Assembly (NCBI GenBank): GCA_964634935.1 | Contig: CAZWJT010000001.1 | Coordinates: 95,480-159,479 of the forward strand | Direction of reading: 5' to 3' | Origin: an uncultured Planctomycetia bacterium | Lineage (GTDB): Bacteria > Omnitrophota > Gorgyraeia > Duberdicusellales > Duberdicusellaceae | DNA: 64,000 bases | Part shown: positions 13,442-48,000 of the stretch, piece by piece | Numbering within the stretch: position 1 is the first letter of the stretch | How the letters are laid out: every line of letters starts with the position of its first letter | The notes under the pieces: generated by a model | Seen by the model: only the letters and a program-made list of their open reading frames with translations | Told to the model about the DNA's origin: nothing | The model's database searches: none | Program-made: the position numbers and the translations under genes

Positions 13442-14536
13442 TTAAGTTTTTTTCTGGATAGATAGGAGTGACTTTCGCATAATGCGCTTTTCCCGCTGCC
13501 CAACCACTAACCAGTAAAGTATTACTTGTTCTTCGGGAGAAAATTCCTTAAGAAAAGTAAGGACGCGATGCTCCTGGGGAATTTTCTCCAGCTCTTGAGC
13601 CTGCTTGTGCAAAAAAGAAGCTTTGGATATTCTCTTCCAGTAATGCCGAGGTAGTTCTAAAAAATCACAGAACTCCTTTGGATTCATCGACCCAAATACA
13701 GCAAAGCCAAGAAAGTAAAAGAGAGTCGTATCGAATTCATTCCCGCTCCGCAATACAGCAAAACAACGAAGAGCTGAATTAATTGTATCGACTTGATTTG
13801 CGGTTAGTGAAAGGTAATTTTCCAAAAATTTAAATCCGGTAAATTGAAACAAACAGCGCACGGCATCATAGGGATTTTCCTCCTGGAACATGCGTTCAAG
13901 CTCATTTGCAATCCTTTTCCCACTGACCCGTTGAATGCTATTTTCTTTACAGGCATGCTTCATTGCAAGAGCGGTAGCGCCGGAAAGATGAAATTTAAAA
14001 CGCACCAAGAATCGAATTGCTCGAAAGATGCGTGTTGGATCGTCAATGAAACTCCGGGGATGAAAGATACGCAATACTTTGCGCTTTAAATCCCGCAACC
14101 CGCCAAACAAATCAATTACTTCAAGATAGCTCTCTGAAGAAAGGTCGAGTGCAAGCGCATTTACCGTAAAATCTCTCCGGAATAAATCGTCGCGTAAAGA
14201 CCCAGAAGAAACCTGAGGAAGGCTTCCTGAGTGTAAATACATTTCTTTCCGTGCAGTTGCAATATCAACTTGATAATCGGAGGAAAAAATTGTTGCCGTG
14301 CCGAAACGAGGATAGTCCACCAACCGCCCAGAAACTTTTTCTGCAAGTCTCCGGGAAAAAAGTATGCCGTCTCCTTCAACGACCAGATCGATATCTAAAT
14401 TTTCCCGATGAAGAAGCATATCCCGCACACACCCTCCCACAAGATATACGTTCATATCAAGGTCCTGCGCTACAGACATCGCTGCCCCTGCGATAACCTG
14501 AGTCATGCACGGTAGGCGTTTGTTTGTTATTCTCAT
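13442..14536 (-). CDS. cca: CCA-adding tRNA nucleotidyltransferase / poly(A) polymerase family (PcnB/Cca head domain)
   Basis: N-terminal polymerase-beta-like motifs (LVGGCVRDMLL, DIDLVVEGDG) and RxxxR…ERxxxE-like downstream motifs. 364 aa. Confidence 0.75.
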   Translation of the reverse strand: MRITNKRLPCMTQVIAGAAMSVAQDLDMNVYLVGGCVRDMLLHRENLDIDLVVEGDGILFSRRLAEKVSGRLVDYPRFGTATIFSSDYQVDIATARKEMYLHSGSLPQVSSGSLRDDLFRRDFTVNALALDLSSESYLEVIDLFGGLRDLKRKVLRIFHPRSFIDDPTRIFRAIRFLVRFKFHLSGATALAMKHACKENSIQRVSGKRIANELERMFQEENPYDAVRCLFQFTGFKFLENYLSLTANQVDTINSALRCFAVLRSGNEFDTTLFYFLGFAVFGSMNPKEFCDFLELPRHYWKRISKASFLHKQAQELEKIPQEHRVLTFLKEFSPEEQVILYWLVVGQREKRIMRKSLLSIQKKT

Positions 14537-15423
14537 TGAGCGCGCGGGTGAAATTTAGTATGAATGGTTTTTAACCGATTCCTATCCACATGGGTATAAA
14601 TCTGGGTCGTAGAGATGCTTGCATGACCCAAAAGTTCTTGAACACTCCGTAAATCAGCGCCACCCTCAAGTAAATGTGTGGCAAAAGAATGCCTGAAAGT
14701 ATGCGGGGTGACCTCTTTGGTAATTCTGGCAAGCTTTACAGCAACTTTAATCATCTTCCAGATACTTTGCCGGCTTAAACGTTTCTTATACTGAGAAACA
14801 AAAAGAAATTCATTAGAAACCCCTTTCAAGATGCTGGCTCTCACCTCTTTCATATAACGCTCAACAAAATGTTCTGCGGATTTTCCAAGCGGAACAATGC
14901 GCTCTTTTGAACCCTTACCACGGCAACGCAAAAAACCTACCGTAAAATCAATATCCTGAAGTTTCAAAAAAGCAACCTCTGAAATCCGCAATCCGGTCGC
15001 ATACATCAACTCGAGAATTGCCCGATCCCGTAAGCCATTGCGAGTGCGAATATTCGGTTGAACAATAATTTTCTCGATCTCATCAACCGTTAACGTATCC
15101 GGAATCCGCTTCCAAAGCTTTGGAGAATCAAGCAATACTGTTGGATCTTTCGAAATAATGTTTTCCCGAACTAAAAATTTATGGAACGATTTAATTCCGG
15201 AAAGCCGGCGGGACACCGATGAAGCCTGTATTCCCTGACTACGTTCTGCAAATAAAAAATCCTGGATATCTTTTTTTTCGACAGACGTCGGAACCGTGAT
15301 GTTCCGTTTTTTTAAAAACTGTGAATATTTCTGTAAATCGAAGGCATACGCCGCCAGGGTATTCCCCGAAAGTCCACGTTCGACCCGTAAATAATCGAGA
15401 AATGAATCGATATATTCTTGCAT
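14533..15423 (-). CDS. xerD: tyrosine site-specific recombinase XerC/XerD family
   Basis: N-terminal SAM-like domain (…YLRVERGLSGNTLAAY…). C-terminal catalytic box HTFRHSFATHLLEGGADLRSVQELLGHASISTTQIYTHV carries the R…HxxR…Y signature. Confidence 0.85.
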   Translation of the reverse strand: MQEYIDSFLDYLRVERGLSGNTLAAYAFDLQKYSQFLKKRNITVPTSVEKKDIQDFLFAERSQGIQASSVSRRLSGIKSFHKFLVRENIISKDPTVLLDSPKLWKRIPDTLTVDEIEKIIVQPNIRTRNGLRDRAILELMYATGLRISEVAFLKLQDIDFTVGFLRCRGKGSKERIVPLGKSAEHFVERYMKEVRASILKGVSNEFLFVSQYKKRLSRQSIWKMIKVAVKLARITKEVTPHTFRHSFATHLLEGGADLRSVQELLGHASISTTQIYTHVDRNRLKTIHTKFHPRAQ

Positions 15424-21443: not shown

Positions 21444-21534
21444 TGGCGGAGGGGAAAGGATTCGAACCCTCGGTCCCGGCAAGCGGGACAACGGTTTTCA
21501 AGACCGCCGCTTTAAACCACTCAGCCACCCCTCC
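21444..21534 (-). tRNA. tRNA-Ser (anticodon UGA), 91 nt including an encoded CCA
   Basis: The reverse complement folds as a cloverleaf with a 7-bp acceptor GGAGGGG/CCCCTCC, anticodon loop CU-UGA-AA, a long variable arm (GTTGTCCCGCTTGCCGGGACC) typical of class II tRNA-Ser, T-loop GGTTCGAATCC, and a 3' CCA. Confidence 0.9.
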
Positions 21535-23328: not shown

Positions 23329-23710
23329 TGGTGGAGGTGCGGGGAATTGAACCCCGGTCCTTAAGTAAAATACTTAAAGTCCCTACGCGTGTAGCTTTCC
23401 TTTTAGCTTACTTAAGCCACCCCGGAAAGCAGGGTTGAACTTAAGGCAGCCTTTAAAATTTTTCCCTACCTTCAAAGGCTAACCAGGTAAAGATGAGCCT
23501 GTGCTTTAACCCCCTATGCCTTCCAGGCAAAAGACACAAGGAGCCCTACTAGTTTACTAAACAGGTAGGAGTTAACCCCATAGGAGCTACAAAAGGAGTA
23601 GCCCCAGTAAACATTGGAGTTGCGTTTAGATTTTCGCAGCTGTTTTGCCAGTGGCTGCGGCTGGACGCGCAACCTTAAGCTTTTTGCTTAAGTCGAATCC
23701 GATCACCCCC
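23329..23710 (-). ncRNA. ssrA: tmRNA (ssrA), about 382 nt
   Basis: The reverse complement starts GGGGGTGATCGGATTCGAC… and ends …GGACCGGGGTTCAATTCCCCGCACCTCCACCA (tRNA-like domain with T-arm and CCA). A candidate resume codon GCA sits 5 nt after an upstream UAA, as in the conserved UAGUC-GCA arrangement, and the open frame ends in tandem TAG TAG. Confidence 0.85.
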
Positions 23711-38744: not shown

Positions 38745-39158
38745 ATGAAGCTGCAAGTCCGGCGAAGAAGAAAAGCGGTAAGCCTCGTTGAAATCCTCCT
38801 TACTGTTGCACTCTTGGCAATCACCCTATGCACAATCCTGGGTAGTTTTACTGCCTGTTTCTTAATTAATGAAACAAACCGCAATATCACCAAAGCAGTA
38901 AGCCATGGGGAATTTGTAATTGAAGAAATTAAGAACGCATCATTTGCAACCCTGCAAACTGCAATTAATTCGGGTAATTTTGATTGGAATACGACCTTTA
39001 TCGCGCAGAAAGGCCTTGAAGCGCTCTCAGAAGAAGGAATTAATACACAAGTACAATCTCTTGGGGCATCTCTGCTCCATGTTACTGTTACCGTTTCTTG
39101 GACGGATCGTAGTGCGAGCAGAACATACACACTTGAAACGCTCATCGCGGATTTATGA
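38745..39158 (+). CDS. type IV pilin-like / pseudopilin (prepilin-type N-terminal helix, Glu5)
   Basis: Charged leader MKLQVRRRRKA followed by VSLVEILLTVALLAITL: a class-III signal-like hydrophobic helix with Glu at +5 of the predicted mature protein. 137 aa. Confidence 0.6.
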   Translation: MKLQVRRRRKAVSLVEILLTVALLAITLCTILGSFTACFLINETNRNITKAVSHGEFVIEEIKNASFATLQTAINSGNFDWNTTFIAQKGLEALSEEGINTQVQSLGASLLHVTVTVSWTDRSASRTYTLETLIADL

Positions 39159-39162
39159 AAAC

Positions 39163-39705
39163 ATGGGAAAAACACTTGCGCTAACTACAAGGGGCAGATT
39201 TCAAAAAAAGGCGTTCACGCTTGCTGAAGCCTTAGTAAGCAGCGTAGTTATGGCTATCCTCCTCAGTGGACTATTTGCTGTTTTCCTCGCAGGAGAAAAA
39301 GGATGGCATTCTGATATAAGCCGAGTAGATCTACAGCAAACGACTCGCCTGGCGCTTTTCGGCATGAGCAGGGAATTACGCCAAACATCCGCCGATACAC
39401 TCTCACTTCCGCAGATTTCAACGATTACCTTCTCGTTACCGAACGTCGGAAATTCGATTACCTATAGTTTTGATGCGGCAAAAAAACAAATTATCAGACA
39501 GCACCCGGCCGGGGTTACCCAGGTAATTGGCCGGGATATCCAGGCACTCAGTTTTTCCTGTCTTGATATTAACAACGCTGTTTTAGCAAGCAACCTCTGC
39601 GGGAATGCCGAAAGTATTCTAATCCAAATAACCGCCCAGAAAGAGGCATTCCAGCGTAGCGTGAGCTTTGCGCTTCAGAAAAAAGTAAAATTACGGAATG
39701 AATAA
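39163..39705 (+). CDS. type IV minor pilin / pseudopilin (GspJ/PilW-like)
   Basis: …RGRFQKKA-FTLAEALVSSVVMAILLSGLFAV: prepilin-type N-terminus with Glu5. About 180 aa. Starts 4 nt after the previous stop. Confidence 0.55.
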   Translation: MGKTLALTTRGRFQKKAFTLAEALVSSVVMAILLSGLFAVFLAGEKGWHSDISRVDLQQTTRLALFGMSRELRQTSADTLSLPQISTITFSLPNVGNSITYSFDAAKKQIIRQHPAGVTQVIGRDIQALSFSCLDINNAVLASNLCGNAESILIQITAQKEAFQRSVSFALQKKVKLRNE

Positions 39706-39764
39706 AGCACACAGAAAACACAATAACTATCGGCAAGAAAGCGTATATAAAAAGTGAGGATTGT

Positions 39765-40781
39765 ATGAGAAAACATGCTTTCACACTGGTCTTTGGGCTT
39801 TTAATCATCGTGGTATTCGCGATACTCCTTACCGGCTTAGTGGCAAAAAGCGTTTCAGAACGGATGATGACGCGGGCTTACGCGGACTCAACCCAGGCTT
39901 TCTGGCTGGCTGAAGCTGGCATAAACCGGGCTTTTGTCGAATTACAAAACAACTATAATCTCTCGGGAGCAAATCTCTTCCCAACCACACTCGGACAAGG
40001 AAGCTACGCCGTCTCTATTGCCACAAACGGACAAAATAAAGTAGTAACCGCTTACGGCTATATTCCCTCTGCGGTAAATCCCCGTATCACCCGCACCTTG
40101 GAAGCAACTTTCCGGAAATCAATTCCTCCTAATTTTTTCGATAACGTTATCTATGGAGCAGGAAACATTGACATTTCTGGAAATAGCTACAGTGTAAACG
40201 GAAACGTTATCTACGCCGACAATTTTACGAATGATGACAACGTCACCGGCAATATCGTTCATGACCCATCAATTAAACCGCTCGCGCGGTTTAATTTCAC
40301 ACAACTTCGCCAAATAAGCGTTAATCAAGGAAACCTCTACACTCAGCAAAGGCTGAACAACAAAGACCCCTTTCCCGTAAGCTTCTGGAATGTACCCCCG
40401 AGCGGAGGCAATCCAGGAATCCCTAATGTTGTCTATATCGAAGGCGACATGGTAGTAAAAGGCAATACAAATGTTGGCGGGTTTTTTGTAGTTGCGGGAA
40501 ATGTTATTACTCAAGCTGACGCAACGGCCGATGCCACATTAAGCGGAAACGTGAATGTTGCTGGAGCAGTCTATACTCGAGGAACTTTCAGGGTGAACGG
40601 CGGAGGAAATAAATTGAATATTGACGGTGGCGTTTGGGCAAGCGCCGTTGATATGAACGGCGGCGTCACCCTGACGTACAATGCCCAATATATGTCAGCT
40701 ATTGCCGGGCTTAATACAAACCCGGAAGTGCAAGTGCTCTTATGGAAAGACCTGGATAAACCGTATAAAATTACCCCGTAA
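39765..40781 (+). CDS. PilX-like type IV pilus minor pilin (PilX_N domain) with Gly/Asn-rich repetitive C-terminal domain
   Basis: MRKHAFTLVFGLLIIVVFAILLTGLVAKSVSERMMTRAYADSTQAFWLAEAGINRAF matches the PilX N-terminal pattern (hydrophobic helix …S..ERM..N…..AF.AAEAG). The C-terminal roughly 200 aa is full of GN/NV repeats. Confidence 0.55.
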   Translation: MRKHAFTLVFGLLIIVVFAILLTGLVAKSVSERMMTRAYADSTQAFWLAEAGINRAFVELQNNYNLSGANLFPTTLGQGSYAVSIATNGQNKVVTAYGYIPSAVNPRITRTLEATFRKSIPPNFFDNVIYGAGNIDISGNSYSVNGNVIYADNFTNDDNVTGNIVHDPSIKPLARFNFTQLRQISVNQGNLYTQQRLNNKDPFPVSFWNVPPSGGNPGIPNVVYIEGDMVVKGNTNVGGFFVVAGNVITQADATADATLSGNVNVAGAVYTRGTFRVNGGGNKLNIDGGVWASAVDMNGGVTLTYNAQYMSAIAGLNTNPEVQVLLWKDLDKPYKITP

Positions 40782-40875: not shown

Positions 40876-43800
40876 TTATTGTTTGCCAAAAAATACTTCG
40901 ATCTTAAAACATTCATCCTTACGAATGCGTACCGCGTCGGAATGCGCAATCACTCCGCCTGAAACAATCTTTTCTTCGCCGTTACGATAGAAAAGCTTTA
41001 CCGAAGTAATCTTGAGGGTGTTTGAAAAAGTATCTTTCCGTGACGGGTTGTAATACACAACGAGCGTATCTTTCAAGAATTTGAAACAGAAAGTATTCGC
41101 GGGAAGAAAAATATGCTGGTGCTTCTTCTGCCAGTAAACTGATCTTTGCTCTGGTTTTACGGTGAAAAAATCCCCGGGCAAGGCTGGAGCAAAAGAAAGA
41201 AAAAGCTTCCCGTCTCTGGTAAAAAACGGGCTCTTCCCGGCACAAAGGAGAATCCACATATGAACCAGCTCGGCCGTCGAACCCGAAAGACGGGCGACAA
41301 AACCCCGGCCCCAGAGTTTCTTATCTGGATAGGCACTGCTTACGATAAAGGAAGAATTCTCTAGAATATTCCGCCCGTATGTTCCGGGCTGCAAGAAACA
41401 AACAAAGCATTTTTTGATATTTTCATAAAATTCTCGGTACAAACCGGCTTTCAAAAGTTCCAAGAGATACTTGTATTCCATGTGCAACCAGATGGATTCA
41501 TTTTCAAGCCACCCTCGGTTAAATACGCGCATCCTGCCGATTTCCAGGCTCTCCCCAGCCAAAGAACCGTTTAATTTATACATCGATAGCTTCTTATCGA
41601 ACAACTGGCTTTTTTTGACTTCACGAACAATGAGCGGAATTTCATCCTGTTCTGCTACCCGAAGAAGATGAACCACACCTTCAAGAAAAACAGGGAGAGG
41701 ATGTTTTTTGAATTCAAGAGACTTTATTGTTCCATTCACATGTTCATAACGTACAACTTCATGCGTATAAAAAGCATGTACCAAAAGGCCATTCCGAGCC
41801 CAGTTGAGAGCTTGTTGTGTTTTCCGAATAACTTTTCCAACAAACAGAGATATCTCTTCTCTGGTAAGACATACAGTCTCTGAGAATCCAAAGAAAGCCG
41901 CATCTCGGTATAGTTCTTTAGCGGCATTACTCTCATCCCAATATGAAAATGCTCGCGACGCATCCTCTGTTGGATAGCGCTCCAGAAGAACATGGATACA
42001 ACGGATAAAATCAGCAAGCTCTTTCGGACAGGCAATCGCATCCTGTATTTCTGGCGACTCATCGAATGCCCGTTGTAAAAAACGAGCTAACCTCAACAAA
42101 GCCATCGTTTCATTTACTGAAGAACCAAAAAGAGCCGGTAAACCATTTAACGCATCACACCAGCCGGGTTTCCCTGCCTCCATCTCAATGCCGATACCAA
42201 AGGCATCAAGCGTCGCAATTTTATTCACCAAGAGCGTGAGCAACTTTACTACGAGACTCACCTGGACAATTTCCCCTCTTCCTGAACCGTCTCTTACCCG
42301 ATGCTTAAGTGAAGTTCTTTCCTGAAGTAACTTCATTTTTCCGGAATCAAGCACAAGAAAGTTATGTTGGCGAATCTTTCCGTGTATATCTCGATAATAC
42401 TTCGCGCTTCTGGGGTTAATGCGATAAGCGCCATCGTAGAAGTAAAATTTCTCCTTGAAAAGAAGTTGAGACAGCTTCTCCGGATAAATCATCAGATAAC
42501 TTTCGAGCAAATCAATATTGTAGAGCCAATGGTCGATCCAAAATCCTTCGGCAAAGTCGGCGTGCTCATAACGTTCAGCAACCGCAAGAACCTTCTCAAT
42601 GCAACGGTACATTTTTGCTTGAGAAAGTTCTTGTTCACTGAGAAAGCTTGAAAGATTCTCCACGGTAAATTCTGCCTGAAGGAATTCACGGGCTCTTTCC
42701 CGGGAAACGCCGCCGAAAAACTCCTGGATAACCGCCTCCAGTGCAGCCTTATCAGACAATACCAGCAATTCTTGTTTCACTACGAGCGGATTATACCCGA
42801 ATTGATCCTGAAGATTAAAAAACAAACGTATATTTAAATTCTGAATATCCGGGTTAAAGTAAACGTCCAGGCGCCGATTCTGATTAATATCGCGGAAGTT
42901 TCCTTCACCCTGAGAAAAATATACCGAAGGAAGCTTAAACTTATTATAGTCGCGCTCAAGATCACCATGTTTTCGAGAAAAAACATACCAGGTTTTCTGG
43001 GCCCCGACCGTTACCGGCATCCCACCTCTTAAAACATTATCAAGGTAAGTTGTTCGCACATACTCATCAAAGACGCGTACGGCTGAAACGGTAAAGGTAT
43101 TATCTTTAATCGAATCAAGGAGAGCATTCCCCGCCTGAAAGTTATTTTCAATAAACAAAGGAACCTTGACTTTTTTAGAAAATGGTTTCAGGAATTTGAG
43201 ATCTTCGGCTGAACCCACTACTGAATAAAAAGTAAATGCCGATGAAGCTGGAATATCTTTTGCAAAAAAACTCATTGCTGCAGGAGTCTTCCCGTATGTA
43301 ATCTGCTCTGAAGGATAACGAAATTTTTTCTCAAGAAACTTATACGGCAGTGTCAGCGATGAGTTATCTTGAAAAATACAATCAGGATCAACTATGAGCT
43401 TTGAGAATACAACCTTCTTTTCGGTAAAGAACGAAGTATAAAAATTTGCCCCTTGAATATAATGAGTTGCGGCGACATCTTCCGGAGAAATTTTCAGCTT
43501 AAATAACGAAAGTTCCTTTCTACAGTCAACTTCCATCCAGGCTTCGATAGTCCGGGAAAGATCCTTGAGCAGAATATTCTTGATACCGTACGGGATAAGA
43601 ACCGGAAGTCCATCGAGAAGCTGAACGGAAATTTTCTTCCTGGAATGGTTTATGAGTGAAACTTTCCGCACCAACCCAGCAACTGGCTGTTCAGACAATA
43701 CAGAATAACGGACGACGATTTCCAAGCCAAGCTTTTTATTCAACTCCTGTATTTGAAACCATGAAGAATGAATCGTCATCCGCTGGACGATAGAATCAGA

Positions 43801-44100
43801 GGTATGAGCGATAAATGGTTCATAAAAAAGATTCCCTATCTTCAGAAATGTCCTGAAGCCTTTATGAAATACCGCGTAATAGGATTTATTCGCCGGGAGA
43901 AACTCCACGACCGAATGATCTTTATCCTTAAAGCCAAAACTCGCGATTCCCTGGGCACGATTTACATAAAAAGCCCAGAGCGGAATCCCATTCATTCCAG
44001 CGATACCTGGGAGAAAATTCGAGAAAGCTGGAGCATGGTTATAATGTTCAATGGTACAAGAACCGTCTTTCCCGATCATATATGTTGCCTGTTTCATCAA
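40876..44100 (-). CDS. large (1074 aa) cytoplasmic hypothetical protein; weak resemblance to glycoside phosphorylase/hydrolase-type (alpha/alpha)6 enzymes
   Basis: No signal peptide. A long uninterrupted ORF in a GC-typical frame. The segment EAGKPGWCDALNGLPALFG is loosely reminiscent of the GDWNDGMN catalytic loop of GH94-type phosphorylases. The family call is inference only. Confidence 0.35.
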   Translation of the reverse strand: MMKQATYMIGKDGSCTIEHYNHAPAFSNFLPGIAGMNGIPLWAFYVNRAQGIASFGFKDKDHSVVEFLPANKSYYAVFHKGFRTFLKIGNLFYEPFIAHTSDSIVQRMTIHSSWFQIQELNKKLGLEIVVRYSVLSEQPVAGLVRKVSLINHSRKKISVQLLDGLPVLIPYGIKNILLKDLSRTIEAWMEVDCRKELSLFKLKISPEDVAATHYIQGANFYTSFFTEKKVVFSKLIVDPDCIFQDNSSLTLPYKFLEKKFRYPSEQITYGKTPAAMSFFAKDIPASSAFTFYSVVGSAEDLKFLKPFSKKVKVPLFIENNFQAGNALLDSIKDNTFTVSAVRVFDEYVRTTYLDNVLRGGMPVTVGAQKTWYVFSRKHGDLERDYNKFKLPSVYFSQGEGNFRDINQNRRLDVYFNPDIQNLNIRLFFNLQDQFGYNPLVVKQELLVLSDKAALEAVIQEFFGGVSRERAREFLQAEFTVENLSSFLSEQELSQAKMYRCIEKVLAVAERYEHADFAEGFWIDHWLYNIDLLESYLMIYPEKLSQLLFKEKFYFYDGAYRINPRSAKYYRDIHGKIRQHNFLVLDSGKMKLLQERTSLKHRVRDGSGRGEIVQVSLVVKLLTLLVNKIATLDAFGIGIEMEAGKPGWCDALNGLPALFGSSVNETMALLRLARFLQRAFDESPEIQDAIACPKELADFIRCIHVLLERYPTEDASRAFSYWDESNAAKELYRDAAFFGFSETVCLTREEISLFVGKVIRKTQQALNWARNGLLVHAFYTHEVVRYEHVNGTIKSLEFKKHPLPVFLEGVVHLLRVAEQDEIPLIVREVKKSQLFDKKLSMYKLNGSLAGESLEIGRMRVFNRGWLENESIWLHMEYKYLLELLKAGLYREFYENIKKCFVCFLQPGTYGRNILENSSFIVSSAYPDKKLWGRGFVARLSGSTAELVHMWILLCAGKSPFFTRDGKLFLSFAPALPGDFFTVKPEQRSVYWQKKHQHIFLPANTFCFKFLKDTLVVYYNPSRKDTFSNTLKITSVKLFYRNGEEKIVSGGVIAHSDAVRIRKDECFKIEVFFGKQ

Positions 44101-44147
44101 CTACTCCTTCTTCAAAAAACCGTATACCTCAAAATCTGTTTATAAGT

Positions 44148-44786: not shown

Positions 44787-44852
44787 CGTACCGTTGCAAC
44801 CGGAAGATTATTCTCCGCCACAAAAATTTCTCAAGTCTCTCAAGGTAGAAGC

Positions 44853-47517: not shown

Positions 47518-48000
47518 TTAAAGTTTATATCCTATTTTCCGCAGAAAATCTTTTCTCCATTGAATATCCTCCGGCGCCTCTACACCACGCGGAGCGCAAC
47601 CGTCGATAACCCCAAGAATACCCCTGCCTTGTTCGCCTTGATAAACAATTACCGACAATGGGTTTGCTGTCGCGCAGAAAACTCTGCATACCTCAGGAAT
47701 ATTTTTTATCTGGTTTAAAACACTGATCGGAAAGCCATTCTTAAGAAAAACGATAAAACTATGTCCGGCTCCTATCGCCTGGGCATTGTCAACCGCTAAT
47801 CTTTGCAATTCGGTGTCATTCCCAGCATATCGCACTAAAGCTTTTCCGGAAGCCTCACAAAACGCAATACCAAATCGCAGGTTGCTCGATGCGGTTGCAA
47901 GCGCCTCAAAAATATCTTCTATTGTTTTGATAAAATGCGCCTGGCCCAAAATCACATTCAGTTCCTCTGGTTTTTGAATTAGAACAATCTCTATCCCCAT
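47518..48000 (-). CDS. adenosine-specific kinase family protein (PF04008-like)
   Basis: 160 aa: KPEELNVILGQAHFIKTIEDIFEAL…FGIAFCEASG…GNDTEL…IGAGHSFIVFL…FPISVLNQIKNIPEVCRVFCATANP…GRGILGVIDG…EDIQWRKDFLRKIGYKL matches the conserved blocks of that family as I recall them. Confidence 0.6.
   Translation of the reverse strand: MGIEIVLIQKPEELNVILGQAHFIKTIEDIFEALATASSNLRFGIAFCEASGKALVRYAGNDTELQRLAVDNAQAIGAGHSFIVFLKNGFPISVLNQIKNIPEVCRVFCATANPLSVIVYQGEQGRGILGVIDGCAPRGVEAPEDIQWRKDFLRKIGYKL

Follow-up and report, generated by a model that had tools for sequence, protein, structure and literature searches.

A GH161-family phosphorylase, probably acting on beta-1,3-glucans, encoded in a housekeeping neighbourhood of an Omnitrophota genome

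We conclude, from sequence comparison and a predicted structural model, that the long minus-strand open reading frame convergent with pilin-like genes in a 64-kb stretch of Omnitrophota DNA (the window) encodes an ordinary member of a known enzyme family, GH161, which is grouped with GH94 and GH149 in clan GH-Q (PMC6484121). By analogy with characterised members of this family, it is quite probable that the gene product is a cytoplasmic inverting phosphorylase, most likely a beta-1,3-glucan or beta-1,3-oligoglucan phosphorylase (EC 2.4.1.97-type). The gene is unusual only in that its neighbours in an Omnitrophota genome are housekeeping genes. Assignment of the organism to the Omnitrophota comes from the homologues of its SecA and from synteny.

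Membership of a CAZy family is decided by sequence, the criterion being significant full-length similarity to founding or characterised members, and similarity of this kind extends along the entire window protein. A phmmer search aligned residues 7-1068 with PDB 9qqk, a GH161 phosphorylase (E 2e-214), the family profile matched 9qqk and 9sr2, both named 'GH161 phosphorylase', together with 9h8v at E = 0 and 1126 bits, and BLASTP gave 39% identity to the solved GH161 phosphorylase over 972 columns. The closest relatives with a solved structure or known biochemistry have no more than about 39-45% identity to the window protein, and the best match in a species-representative genome collection is 45% identical. 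The AF2 model, with a pTM of 0.90 and with pLDDT below 50 in the active-site loops (residues 377-386, 643-648 and 935-938), contains an (alpha/alpha)6 barrel, and in Foldseek was closest to 9gy9, described as 'bacterial beta-1,3-glucan phosphorylase from family GH161' (TM 0.90), and to 9qqk, which is complexed with a beta-1,3 glucooligosaccharide (TM 0.89), ahead of GH149 (0.76) and a GH94 laminaribiose phosphorylase (0.68). The order of secondary structure elements in the model and the whole-chain Foldseek matches are those of the four-domain GH161 architecture (Table 1), in which the linker ends in an invariant VLRGG segment (R357, G358 and G359 are each invariant in a 26-sequence alignment) and the catalytic barrel carries small beta inserts. 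The same domain order is found in GH149 and GH94 (PMC6771811) and in the GH161 enzyme THA_1941 (bioRxiv 10.1101/2025.04.05.647330). Collinear full-length homology and a common four-domain fold therefore relate the window protein to the GH161 enzymes 9gy9, 9qqk/9sr2 and 9h8v, Paenibacillus polymyxa PapP and Thermosipho africanus THA_1941/TaBGP; we found no paper describing the structures 9qqk, 9sr2, 9h8v or 9gy9. GH161 has neither a Pfam nor an NCBIfam model of its own, which is why the family escapes both motif reading and many annotation pipelines. A Pfam scan of the protein gave no family above threshold; a sub-threshold match to RecJ_OB was dismissed as noise.

The frame is open over 1074 codons when counted from a TTG at 44100, as read from the ORF listing and its translation, but translation almost certainly starts at the ATG at 44097, giving 1073 aa. 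We prefer this ATG because a Shine-Dalgarno-like GAAGGAG lies 6 nt upstream of it, while the TTG would leave 3 nt, and an identical database protein (P0001) also has 1073 aa. Thousands of homologues, as well as solved structures, align end to end with the product, which places the coding status of the frame beyond doubt. The protein lacks an N-terminal signal-like hydrophobic stretch, and its sole hydrophobic peak (Kyte-Doolittle 1.8, residues 610-628) was rejected as a membrane segment, being a barrel helix in the predicted model; as judged by the absence of both features, the protein is probably cytoplasmic. PapP is likewise predicted to have no export signal (PMC6484121). With this small change of start codon, the initial annotation of a real 1074-aa frame without signal peptide or transmembrane segments, convergent with a pilin operon, stands. 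It had ranked the frame second in length to SecA, but at 1073 or 1074 aa it is the longest in the window, SecA having 943 aa.

Table 1. Positions of the GH161 gene, the domains and motifs of its product, and neighbouring features in the window
Feature	Coordinates	Strand	Basis or remark
GH161 phosphorylase CDS	40876..44097	-	1073 aa; stop codon 40876..40878
Shine-Dalgarno-like GAAGGAG	44104..44110	-	6 nt 5' of ATG 44097; sequence reading
N-terminal beta-sandwich domain, ~residues 1-298	43204..44097	-	AF2 strands up to residue 297
Helical linker, ~residues 299-358	43024..43203	-	AF2 helices 300-310, 313-334, 341-358
(alpha/alpha)6-barrel catalytic domain, ~residues 359-955	41233..43023	-	AF2 helix pattern; full-length GH161/GH149/GH94 structural matches
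C-terminal beta jelly-roll domain, ~residues 956-1073	40879..41232	-	AF2 strands 958-1072
Arg-Asp motif R402-D403 (GNFRDINQN)	42889..42894	-	translation; aligned to GH149 R470-D471; invariant in 26
Catalytic loop GKPGWCDALNGLP, residues 642-654	42136..42174	-	translation; Pro_7066 alignment
ENESIWLH, residues 865-872	41482..41505	-	translation; E865 and H872 invariant in 26
Pilin-like gene	38745..39158	+	
Pilin-like gene, N_methyl	about 39190..39705	+	
Pilin-like gene, PilX_N	39765..40781	+	
HAD-IA phosphatase-like gene, 212 aa	44148..44786	-	Pfam HAD_2 2.5e-36; 50 bp upstream of GH161
Promoter-like TTGAGA-16-AATAAT	44807..44834	-	consensus scan; 21 nt upstream of HAD start codon

The catalytic residues of the family are recognisable in the window protein. 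In the profile alignment with the GH149 enzyme Pro_7066, the segment P-G-W-C-D-A-L-N aligns with P-E-W-N-D-A-N-N, such that W646-C647-D648 is the counterpart of W651-N652-D653 (PDB chain numbering +19), a loop in which D653 is the predicted catalytic Asp (PMC6771811). D648 is thus the predicted general acid. In this loop the 26 aligned sequences agree throughout at W646, D648, N651, G652, L653 and P654, and the pattern W-x-D-x-x-N is present in all 120 of the 120 best database homologues. The Arg-Asp motif corresponds by alignment to the GH149 R470-D471 motif that recognises sugar 1-phosphate (PMC6771811). The GH149 profile alignment stops at profile position 815, and the remaining residues were consequently placed by motif and spacing: E865 would correspond to the Glu that binds glucose (GH149 E951, THA_1941 E840) and H872 to the phosphate-site His, GH149 H959 (roles from PMC6771811 and bioRxiv 10.1101/2025.04.05.647330). 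R375, S915/S916 and S938-G939-T941 are also present, with R375, S915, S916, G939 and T941 invariant across the 26 sequences. THA_1941 lost its activity when the equivalent residues (Arg, Arg, Asp and Glu) were mutated (bioRxiv 10.1101/2025.04.05.647330). The W-x-D loop, the R-D motif, the Glu and the His/Arg phosphate site are therefore common to the known GH161 enzymes and the window protein.

The initial annotation had left the protein in an unassigned family, whereas GH161 exists, with biochemically characterised members and solved structures; the likeness to GH94-type phosphorylases that it noted holds at the level of the clan, the family being GH161 and not GH94. It had based this likeness on a GDWNDGMN-like segment, which is indeed present and is the catalytic loop of Table 1, and had considered the catalytic Asp position not to be conserved. 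This was mistaken, since only the Asn between Trp and Asp has been replaced, by Cys. The same substitution is all that could be set beside that motif comparison in favour of a further reading implied by it, that the protein is a relic without activity or a scaffold without a catalytic role. We consider this scarcely credible, as neither D648 nor any other catalytic or phosphate-site residue varies, the frame is unbroken over 1073 codons, and the protein departs from conserved positions about as much as is usual in the family: 13 of the 222 positions conserved at 90% or above deviate here, as compared with 7-15 in other members, and none of the 13 is catalytic. Selection is favoured over decay by the Cys itself, which recurs in 107 of the 120 closest homologues. 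By its sequence the gene is intact, with its catalytic machinery preserved.

Across the family, the middle residue of the loop reads as a clade marker. All 11 members of the clade to which the window belongs have Cys here, most members of another Omnitrophota clade have Phe, and Tyr occupies the position in 9qqk, the solved enzyme, and in Thermotogae and Firmicutes, including a Fervidobacterium homologue with W-Y-D, while the THA_1941 loop is given as W-N-D (bioRxiv 10.1101/2025.04.05.647330). As the W-C-D of the window protein contrasts with the Tyr of 9qqk and with the Asn of GH94 and GH149, details of the subsite may differ.

The steps of the mechanism follow those of the family. The characterised GH161 enzymes PapP and TaBGP use beta-1,3-glucans as substrates in an inverting single-displacement reaction (PMC6484121; PMC8140972), and from these enzymes and the ligand in the title of 9qqk we infer phosphate-dependent, inverting beta-1,3 cleavage or synthesis with alpha-Glc1P. 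Subsite -1 would bind the non-reducing-end glucose of a beta-1,3-gluco-oligosaccharide, held by W646, R402-D403 and E865, and the phosphate pocket would be lined by R375, H872 and the segments S915/S916 and S938-G939-T941, which supply its conserved Arg, His and Ser residues. In one displacement step, inorganic phosphate would then attack C1 as D648 donates a proton to the departing O3, giving, reversibly, alpha-D-glucose 1-phosphate and a glucan shorter by one unit. Glucose released in this way could enter glycolysis via phosphoglucomutase without an ATP-consuming kinase step, which would be useful for an energy-limited anaerobe. We likewise infer which substrate is used, over what range of chain lengths, in which direction flux runs in vivo and how the substrate enters the cytoplasm, in the case of the in vivo substrate and its source because the gene has housekeeping surroundings with no transporter or glucosidase nearby.

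Several public records name homologues of this protein 'cellobiose phosphorylase' (others are 'hypothetical'), and PDB 9h8v also carries this name. [quoted passage not shown] That the protein is a cellobiose or cellodextrin phosphorylase of GH94 is nevertheless very improbable: no GH94 Pfam domain was detected in the protein, the similarity of the family profile to the laminaribiose phosphorylase 6ggy is marginal (E 0.014, as against E = 0 for GH161), and TM-scores to cellobiose phosphorylases are 0.54-0.57, far from the 0.90 to GH161. GH94 enzymes are about 800-900 aa in length. The same mislabel has been corrected for the Thermosipho enzyme, which is beta-1,3-specific (PMC8140972). GH149, represented by Pro_7066 (PDB 6HQ6) and Euglena EgP1, is closer, with the clan, the domain order and the catalytic motifs shared with the window protein, but its similarity to the family profile is confined to three partial stretches (E 5e-37), and the NCBIfam GH149 model NF058639 scores 94.3 bits against an equivalog cut-off of 1150. 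In addition, identity to GH149 is about 17%, and the GH149 chain is about 100 residues longer, with two additional domains, Dom1 and Dom2, inserted in it (PMC6771811).

Assignment to GH161 leaves room for a phosphorylase of this fold with another specificity or role, acting on a different beta-glycoside or donor, or on endogenous, host or prey glucan instead of imported laminarin, in which case the Omnitrophota clade would form a subfamily with a function of its own. The clade-specific loop residue (Cys, Phe or Tyr) is consistent with this, as are an identity to any assayed enzyme of at most about 45% and the several specificities held by clan families such as GH94 (PMC8140972). Gene context also fits, as the Omnitrophota gene is inherited in housekeeping synteny outside carbohydrate loci, unlike that of Fervidobacterium. 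We still regard such a change of function as unlikely: all known Glc1P- and phosphate-binding residues are conserved, every assayed GH161 enzyme makes or cleaves beta-1,3-glucosidic bonds (PMC6484121; PMC8140972; bioRxiv 10.1101/2025.04.05.647330), and in small, streamlined genomes little can be concluded from a lack of gene clustering.

The published genomic signature of bacterial GH161 is an adjacent beta-glucosidase, ABC transporter or GH94 gene. The cluster that is typical of the family, without defining it (beta-glucosidase of GH1, GH3 or GH30, ABC transporter, GH16, GH94), is absent from the 64-kb window, where all genes are housekeeping genes. In the Omnitrophota, GH161 lies in the order Lnt-AdoK-LpxL-patatin-BioY-HAD-GH161 or gatCAB-ctpA-tsaD-...-GH161, with no sugar permease, GH3 or GH16 gene nearby in the Omnitrophota loci examined. 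Across 81 related loci, sugar permeases adjoin GH161 only in Fervidobacterium and Caloramator, and GH3 and GH16 only in Fervidobacterium, whose locus reads ABC permeases-GH3-GH161-GH16-LacI. The Thermotogae and Firmicutes genes are placed in laminarin loci, in contrast to the Omnitrophota genes among housekeeping functions. An Omnitrophota genome preprint and a deep-sea laminarin paper make no mention of a GH161 enzyme.

Within the window, the GH161 gene converges with three plus-strand pilin-like genes, the stop codons lying 94 bp apart, and no convincing terminator was found in this gap. On its other side is the HAD phosphatase-like gene, which is probably co-transcribed with GH161 and is adjacent to it in seven loci of the same clade (the window and six related loci). 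The best NCBIfam and PDB matches of this neighbour are phosphoglycolate phosphatases, all below cut-off; its identification as a beta-phosphoglucomutase or Glc1P phosphatase was rejected, because only generic HAD-IA and phosphoglycolate-phosphatase models match, again below their cut-offs. The promoter-like sequence of Table 1 is a possible promoter of the HAD-GH161 transcript, as a positional hint only, given that the consensus scan found fewer promoter-like sites in the region than in shuffled sequence, and that neither promoter nor terminator scans showed enrichment over shuffled sequence.

The position of the Omnitrophota homologues outside carbohydrate-utilisation loci raises a modest question as to the source of beta-1,3-glucan in bacteria with small genomes. 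It is conceivable, though we think it doubtful, that the Omnitrophota GH161, instead of being an accessory of laminarin loci, is a vertically inherited enzyme with clade-specific loops (W-C-D, W-F-D, W-Y-D) that serves a pathway not yet recognised in these bacteria, which are ultra-small and may depend on hosts. Were this so, the pathway might turn over a beta-glucan reserve of the cell itself, exploit glucan from host or prey, or use a new substrate, and the sugar phosphate might be handled by the neighbouring HAD phosphatase. Phosphorolysis saves one ATP per glucose, and may form part of the core energy economy of the Omnitrophota. For annotation, the present assignment replaces 'hypothetical' and 'cellobiose phosphorylase' with GH161 beta-1,3-glucan phosphorylase, the probable activity, and exposes a gap in the standard domain libraries. 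These enzymes may also interest groups producing beta-1,3-glucans from glucose 1-phosphate.

The minus-strand frame at 40876..44100 is open for 1074 codons counted from a TTG, and the ORF listing and translation bear out the initial annotation in treating it as a real gene. An ATG at 44097 lies one codon 3' of the TTG, with GAAGGAG ahead of it at 44104..44110 (spacing 6 nt); translation from this ATG yields a product of 1073 aa, as long as an identical public protein (P0001, from a 353,849-nt contig). The segment GKPGWCDALNGLP, which had been singled out in the ORF, was found at residues 642-654 (42136..42174). The gene product had been described as lacking a signal peptide and the gene as convergent with pilin genes, and both descriptions hold: hydropathy gave no N-terminal hydrophobic signal, the sole hydrophobic peak (residues 610-628) being a helix within the predicted barrel, and the last of the three plus-strand pilin-like genes ends at 40781. 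It had also been ranked as the longest ORF after SecA, but at 1073 aa it exceeds SecA, at 943 aa.

Motif reading could not place the protein because a Pfam search returned zero matches and the sole NCBIfam match was a GH149 model at 94 bits, versus a cut-off of 1150. Although its family had been called unassigned, both sequence and structure searches of the PDB assign it to GH161. The best hits, 9qqk/9sr2 ('GH161 phosphorylase / GH161A'; E 2e-214) and 9h8v (1.9e-213), cover residues 7-1068, and the GH149 enzyme Pro_7066 (6hq6) comes next at 1.6e-13. For 9qqk, 953 residues were recoverable from the alignment, and a BLASTP comparison with these gave 39% identity over 972 columns. An AlphaFold2 model built with 26 homologues (pTM 0.90, mean pLDDT 84.6) has a beta-sandwich, helical linker, helical barrel and C-terminal beta domain, in that order. 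Its best Foldseek matches in the PDB were 9gy9 ('cryo-EM structure of bacterial beta-1,3-glucan phosphorylase from family GH161'; TM 0.90, E 1.7e-87) and 9qqk ('GH161 phosphorylase in complex with beta-1,3 glucooligosaccharide'; TM 0.89). GH149 came second (TM 0.76) and GH94 was the farthest of the three by fold, with laminaribiose phosphorylase at TM 0.68 and cellobiose, chitobiose and cellodextrin phosphorylases at 0.51-0.57, so that the suspected kinship with GH94-type phosphorylases is real but more distant. The same ranking, GH161 before GH149 before GH94, is published for clan GH-Q (PMC6484121). The window protein is thus firmly an uncharacterised member of a known family, with its catalytic Asp intact. 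Some homologues are labelled 'cellobiose phosphorylase', a name that every test run here fails to support and a known type of mis-annotation for GH161 (PMC8140972).

The catalytic Asp had been reported as not conserved. This was wrong, since D648 aligns with the GH149 catalytic Asp and is invariant in 26 of 26 sequences. In the GH149 profile alignment (PDB chain numbering offset by +19), P-E-W-N-D-A-N-N of Pro_7066 corresponds to P-G-W-C-D-A-L-N and E-G-N-W-R-D to E-G-N-F-R-D, and by this alignment D648 matches the catalytic Asp and R402-D403 the R-D motif. The motif ENESIWLH holds E865 and H872, 7 residues apart. The GH94 Glu/His pair shares this motif and spacing (E659/H666 in Cellvibrio gilvus cellobiose phosphorylase). 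Because the GH149 alignment ends ahead of this region, E865/H872 were assigned by resemblance, and we take them, from the motif and spacing, to be the GH94-type pair; in GH149 the pair (E951/H959) is spaced by 8 residues (PMC6771811). Invariant across the 26-sequence alignment are W646, D648, N651-P654, R357, R375, R382, R402, D403, E865, H872, S915, S916, G939 and T941. In THA_1941, the GH161 of Thermosipho africanus, Glc1P is reported in a preprint to be contacted by W623/N624/D625, R345, R373, E840, S891 and S913, and mutants of R345, R373, D625 and E840 to lose activity (bioRxiv 10.1101/2025.04.05.647330). The window protein differs at 13 of 222 positions conserved to at least 90%, none of them catalytic; in other members the number is 7-15. 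It thus has the look of a functional enzyme, and the analysis shows its fold, residues and intactness.

Within the W-N-D loop only the Asn is changed, to Cys. This position is Cys throughout the window's clade (11 of 11 members), as it is in 107 of the 120 best-matching database proteins. Tyr stands here in 9qqk, as well as in the homologues from Fervidobacterium, Caloramator and Endomicrobia, and a second Omnitrophota clade mostly has Phe. The middle residue of the Trp-x-Asp stretch (42154..42162 in the window) is therefore a clade marker, being Cys, Tyr or Phe by clade across the related loci where GH94 and GH149 have Asn; it could help to define subfamilies or determine specificity.

Characterised GH161 enzymes act by inverting single displacement (PMC8140972), and by homology the window enzyme would do the same. 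Phosphate would attack C1 of the glucose at the non-reducing end, D648 would protonate the leaving O3, and the products would be alpha-Glc1P and a shortened beta-1,3-glucan, in a reversible reaction. Statements on substrate, chain-length range, in vivo direction and substrate supply route are likewise inferred. The W-C-D loop, the approximately 39% identity to the solved enzyme and the lack of an uptake or glucosidase partner alongside GH161 would fit an enzyme whose specificity has diverged or whose substrate is endogenous, but we consider this unlikely.

Co-located beta-glucosidases, ABC transporters and sometimes GH94 are a hallmark of bacterial GH161 (PMC6484121). The Fervidobacterium islandicum locus reproduces this pattern, with two ABC permeases followed by GH3, GH161, GH16 and LacI, whereas none of these hallmark partners is among the annotated genes of the 64-kb window. 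Those genes all have general cellular functions, including the dcw cell-wall cluster, two-component sensors, dapA, dapB, SecA, RF2, LptE, a YfiO-like (BamD-type) TPR lipoprotein, MurJ, and pantoate and histidine biosynthesis enzymes. Among 81 related loci, 34 with at least 5 kb on both flanks, sugar permeases lie near GH161 only in Fervidobacterium and Caloramator; Omnitrophota neighbours are gatCAB, ctpA, tsaD, plsY, pgsA, lepA/B and moxR/batA. This location outside carbohydrate-utilisation loci, within a large Omnitrophota set, is the sole mildly notable aspect. In 16 Omnitrophota loci (L013, L025, L042, L044, L050, L051, L058, L063, L065, L067, L068, L071-L074, L078) a CE4 polysaccharide deacetylase (Polysacc_deac_1, 2.3e-28 for the L051 copy), approximately 212-301 aa long and anchored by a membrane segment at its N terminus, lies directly 5' of GH161 on the same strand, which may reflect either shared ancestry or a functional pair. 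The HAD-GH161 pair recurs in seven same-clade loci (the window and six others), a promoter-like site adjoins the HAD gene on its upstream side, and co-transcription is plausible.

In a neighbour-joining tree of 81 GH161 sequences, L001 and L002 cluster with the window protein, adjacent to a group made up of L003-L009 plus L024. The latter share upstream synteny with the window; the order in L006 is Lnt-AdoK-LpxL-patatin-BioY-HAD-GH161, parts of which occur in several other loci of the group. This grouping and shared gene order indicate that GH161 was inherited vertically in the window's clade. When 1.84 billion cluster representatives were scanned in full with HMMER, 567 matched at E <= 1e-30 and 1154 at E <= 1e-10, a real family of modest size. 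Window SecA has an identical database copy, located on the contig that carries P0001, and a best non-self homologue 68% identical, its named homologues all being Candidatus Omnitrophota. For GH161, the homologues with an organism name in the top 120 database proteins are also Omnitrophota, except Halobacteroides. The nearest non-identical GH161 among these is just 51% identical, so the lineage is sparsely sampled. Records for L002, L003, L005, L006, L007, L011 and others are labelled 'uncultured Planctomycetia/Planctomycetales'; these labels look unreliable because gene order and closest GH161 sequences match Omnitrophota-labelled MAGs. Homologues approximately 40% identical on contigs binned as archaeal (L021, L057, L079, L080; Staphylothermus sp., ANME-2, Hadesarchaea) could reflect lateral transfer or mis-binning.

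Features of the window, with positions and strand
Feature	Position	Strand	Remarks
Tyrosine recombinase	14533..15423	-	Phage_integrase and SAM-like N-terminal domain; housekeeping neighbours
tRNA-Ser(tga)	21444..21534	-	
ORF, 192 aa	21887..22465	-	no Pfam match at E <= 1e-5
tmRNA	23329..23710	-	Rfam 162.8 bits; tag peptide AATGKTAAKI*
ORF, 511 aa	27531..29066	-	no Pfam match at E <= 1e-5
DEAD-box helicase, 654 aa	36648..38612	-	C-terminal DSHCT (Ski2/Mtr4-type), 6.6e-21
ORF, 156 aa	38705..39175	-	shadow of first pilin-like gene
Three pilin/pseudopilin-like genes	38745..40781	+	two N-terminal methylation-type motifs, one PilX_N
HAD-IA phosphatase-like, 212 aa	44148..44786	-	50 bp upstream of GH161; phosphoglycolate-phosphatase models, below cut-offs
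Adenosine-specific kinase family protein	47518..48000	-	PF04008, E 1.4e-74
ORF, 227 aa	58040..58723	-	no Pfam match at E <= 1e-5

The tmRNA and tRNA-Ser(tga) occupy the window's only stretch without long ORFs, and the pilin-like trio are its only clear plus-strand genes, the rest being transcribed on the minus strand. The DSHCT domain of the helicase is best known in eukaryotic and archaeal RNA helicases. The adenosine-specific kinase is flanked by Lnt and a lipid A acyltransferase, an arrangement also seen in L006. The tyrosine recombinase is more likely XerC/D than part of a mobile element.
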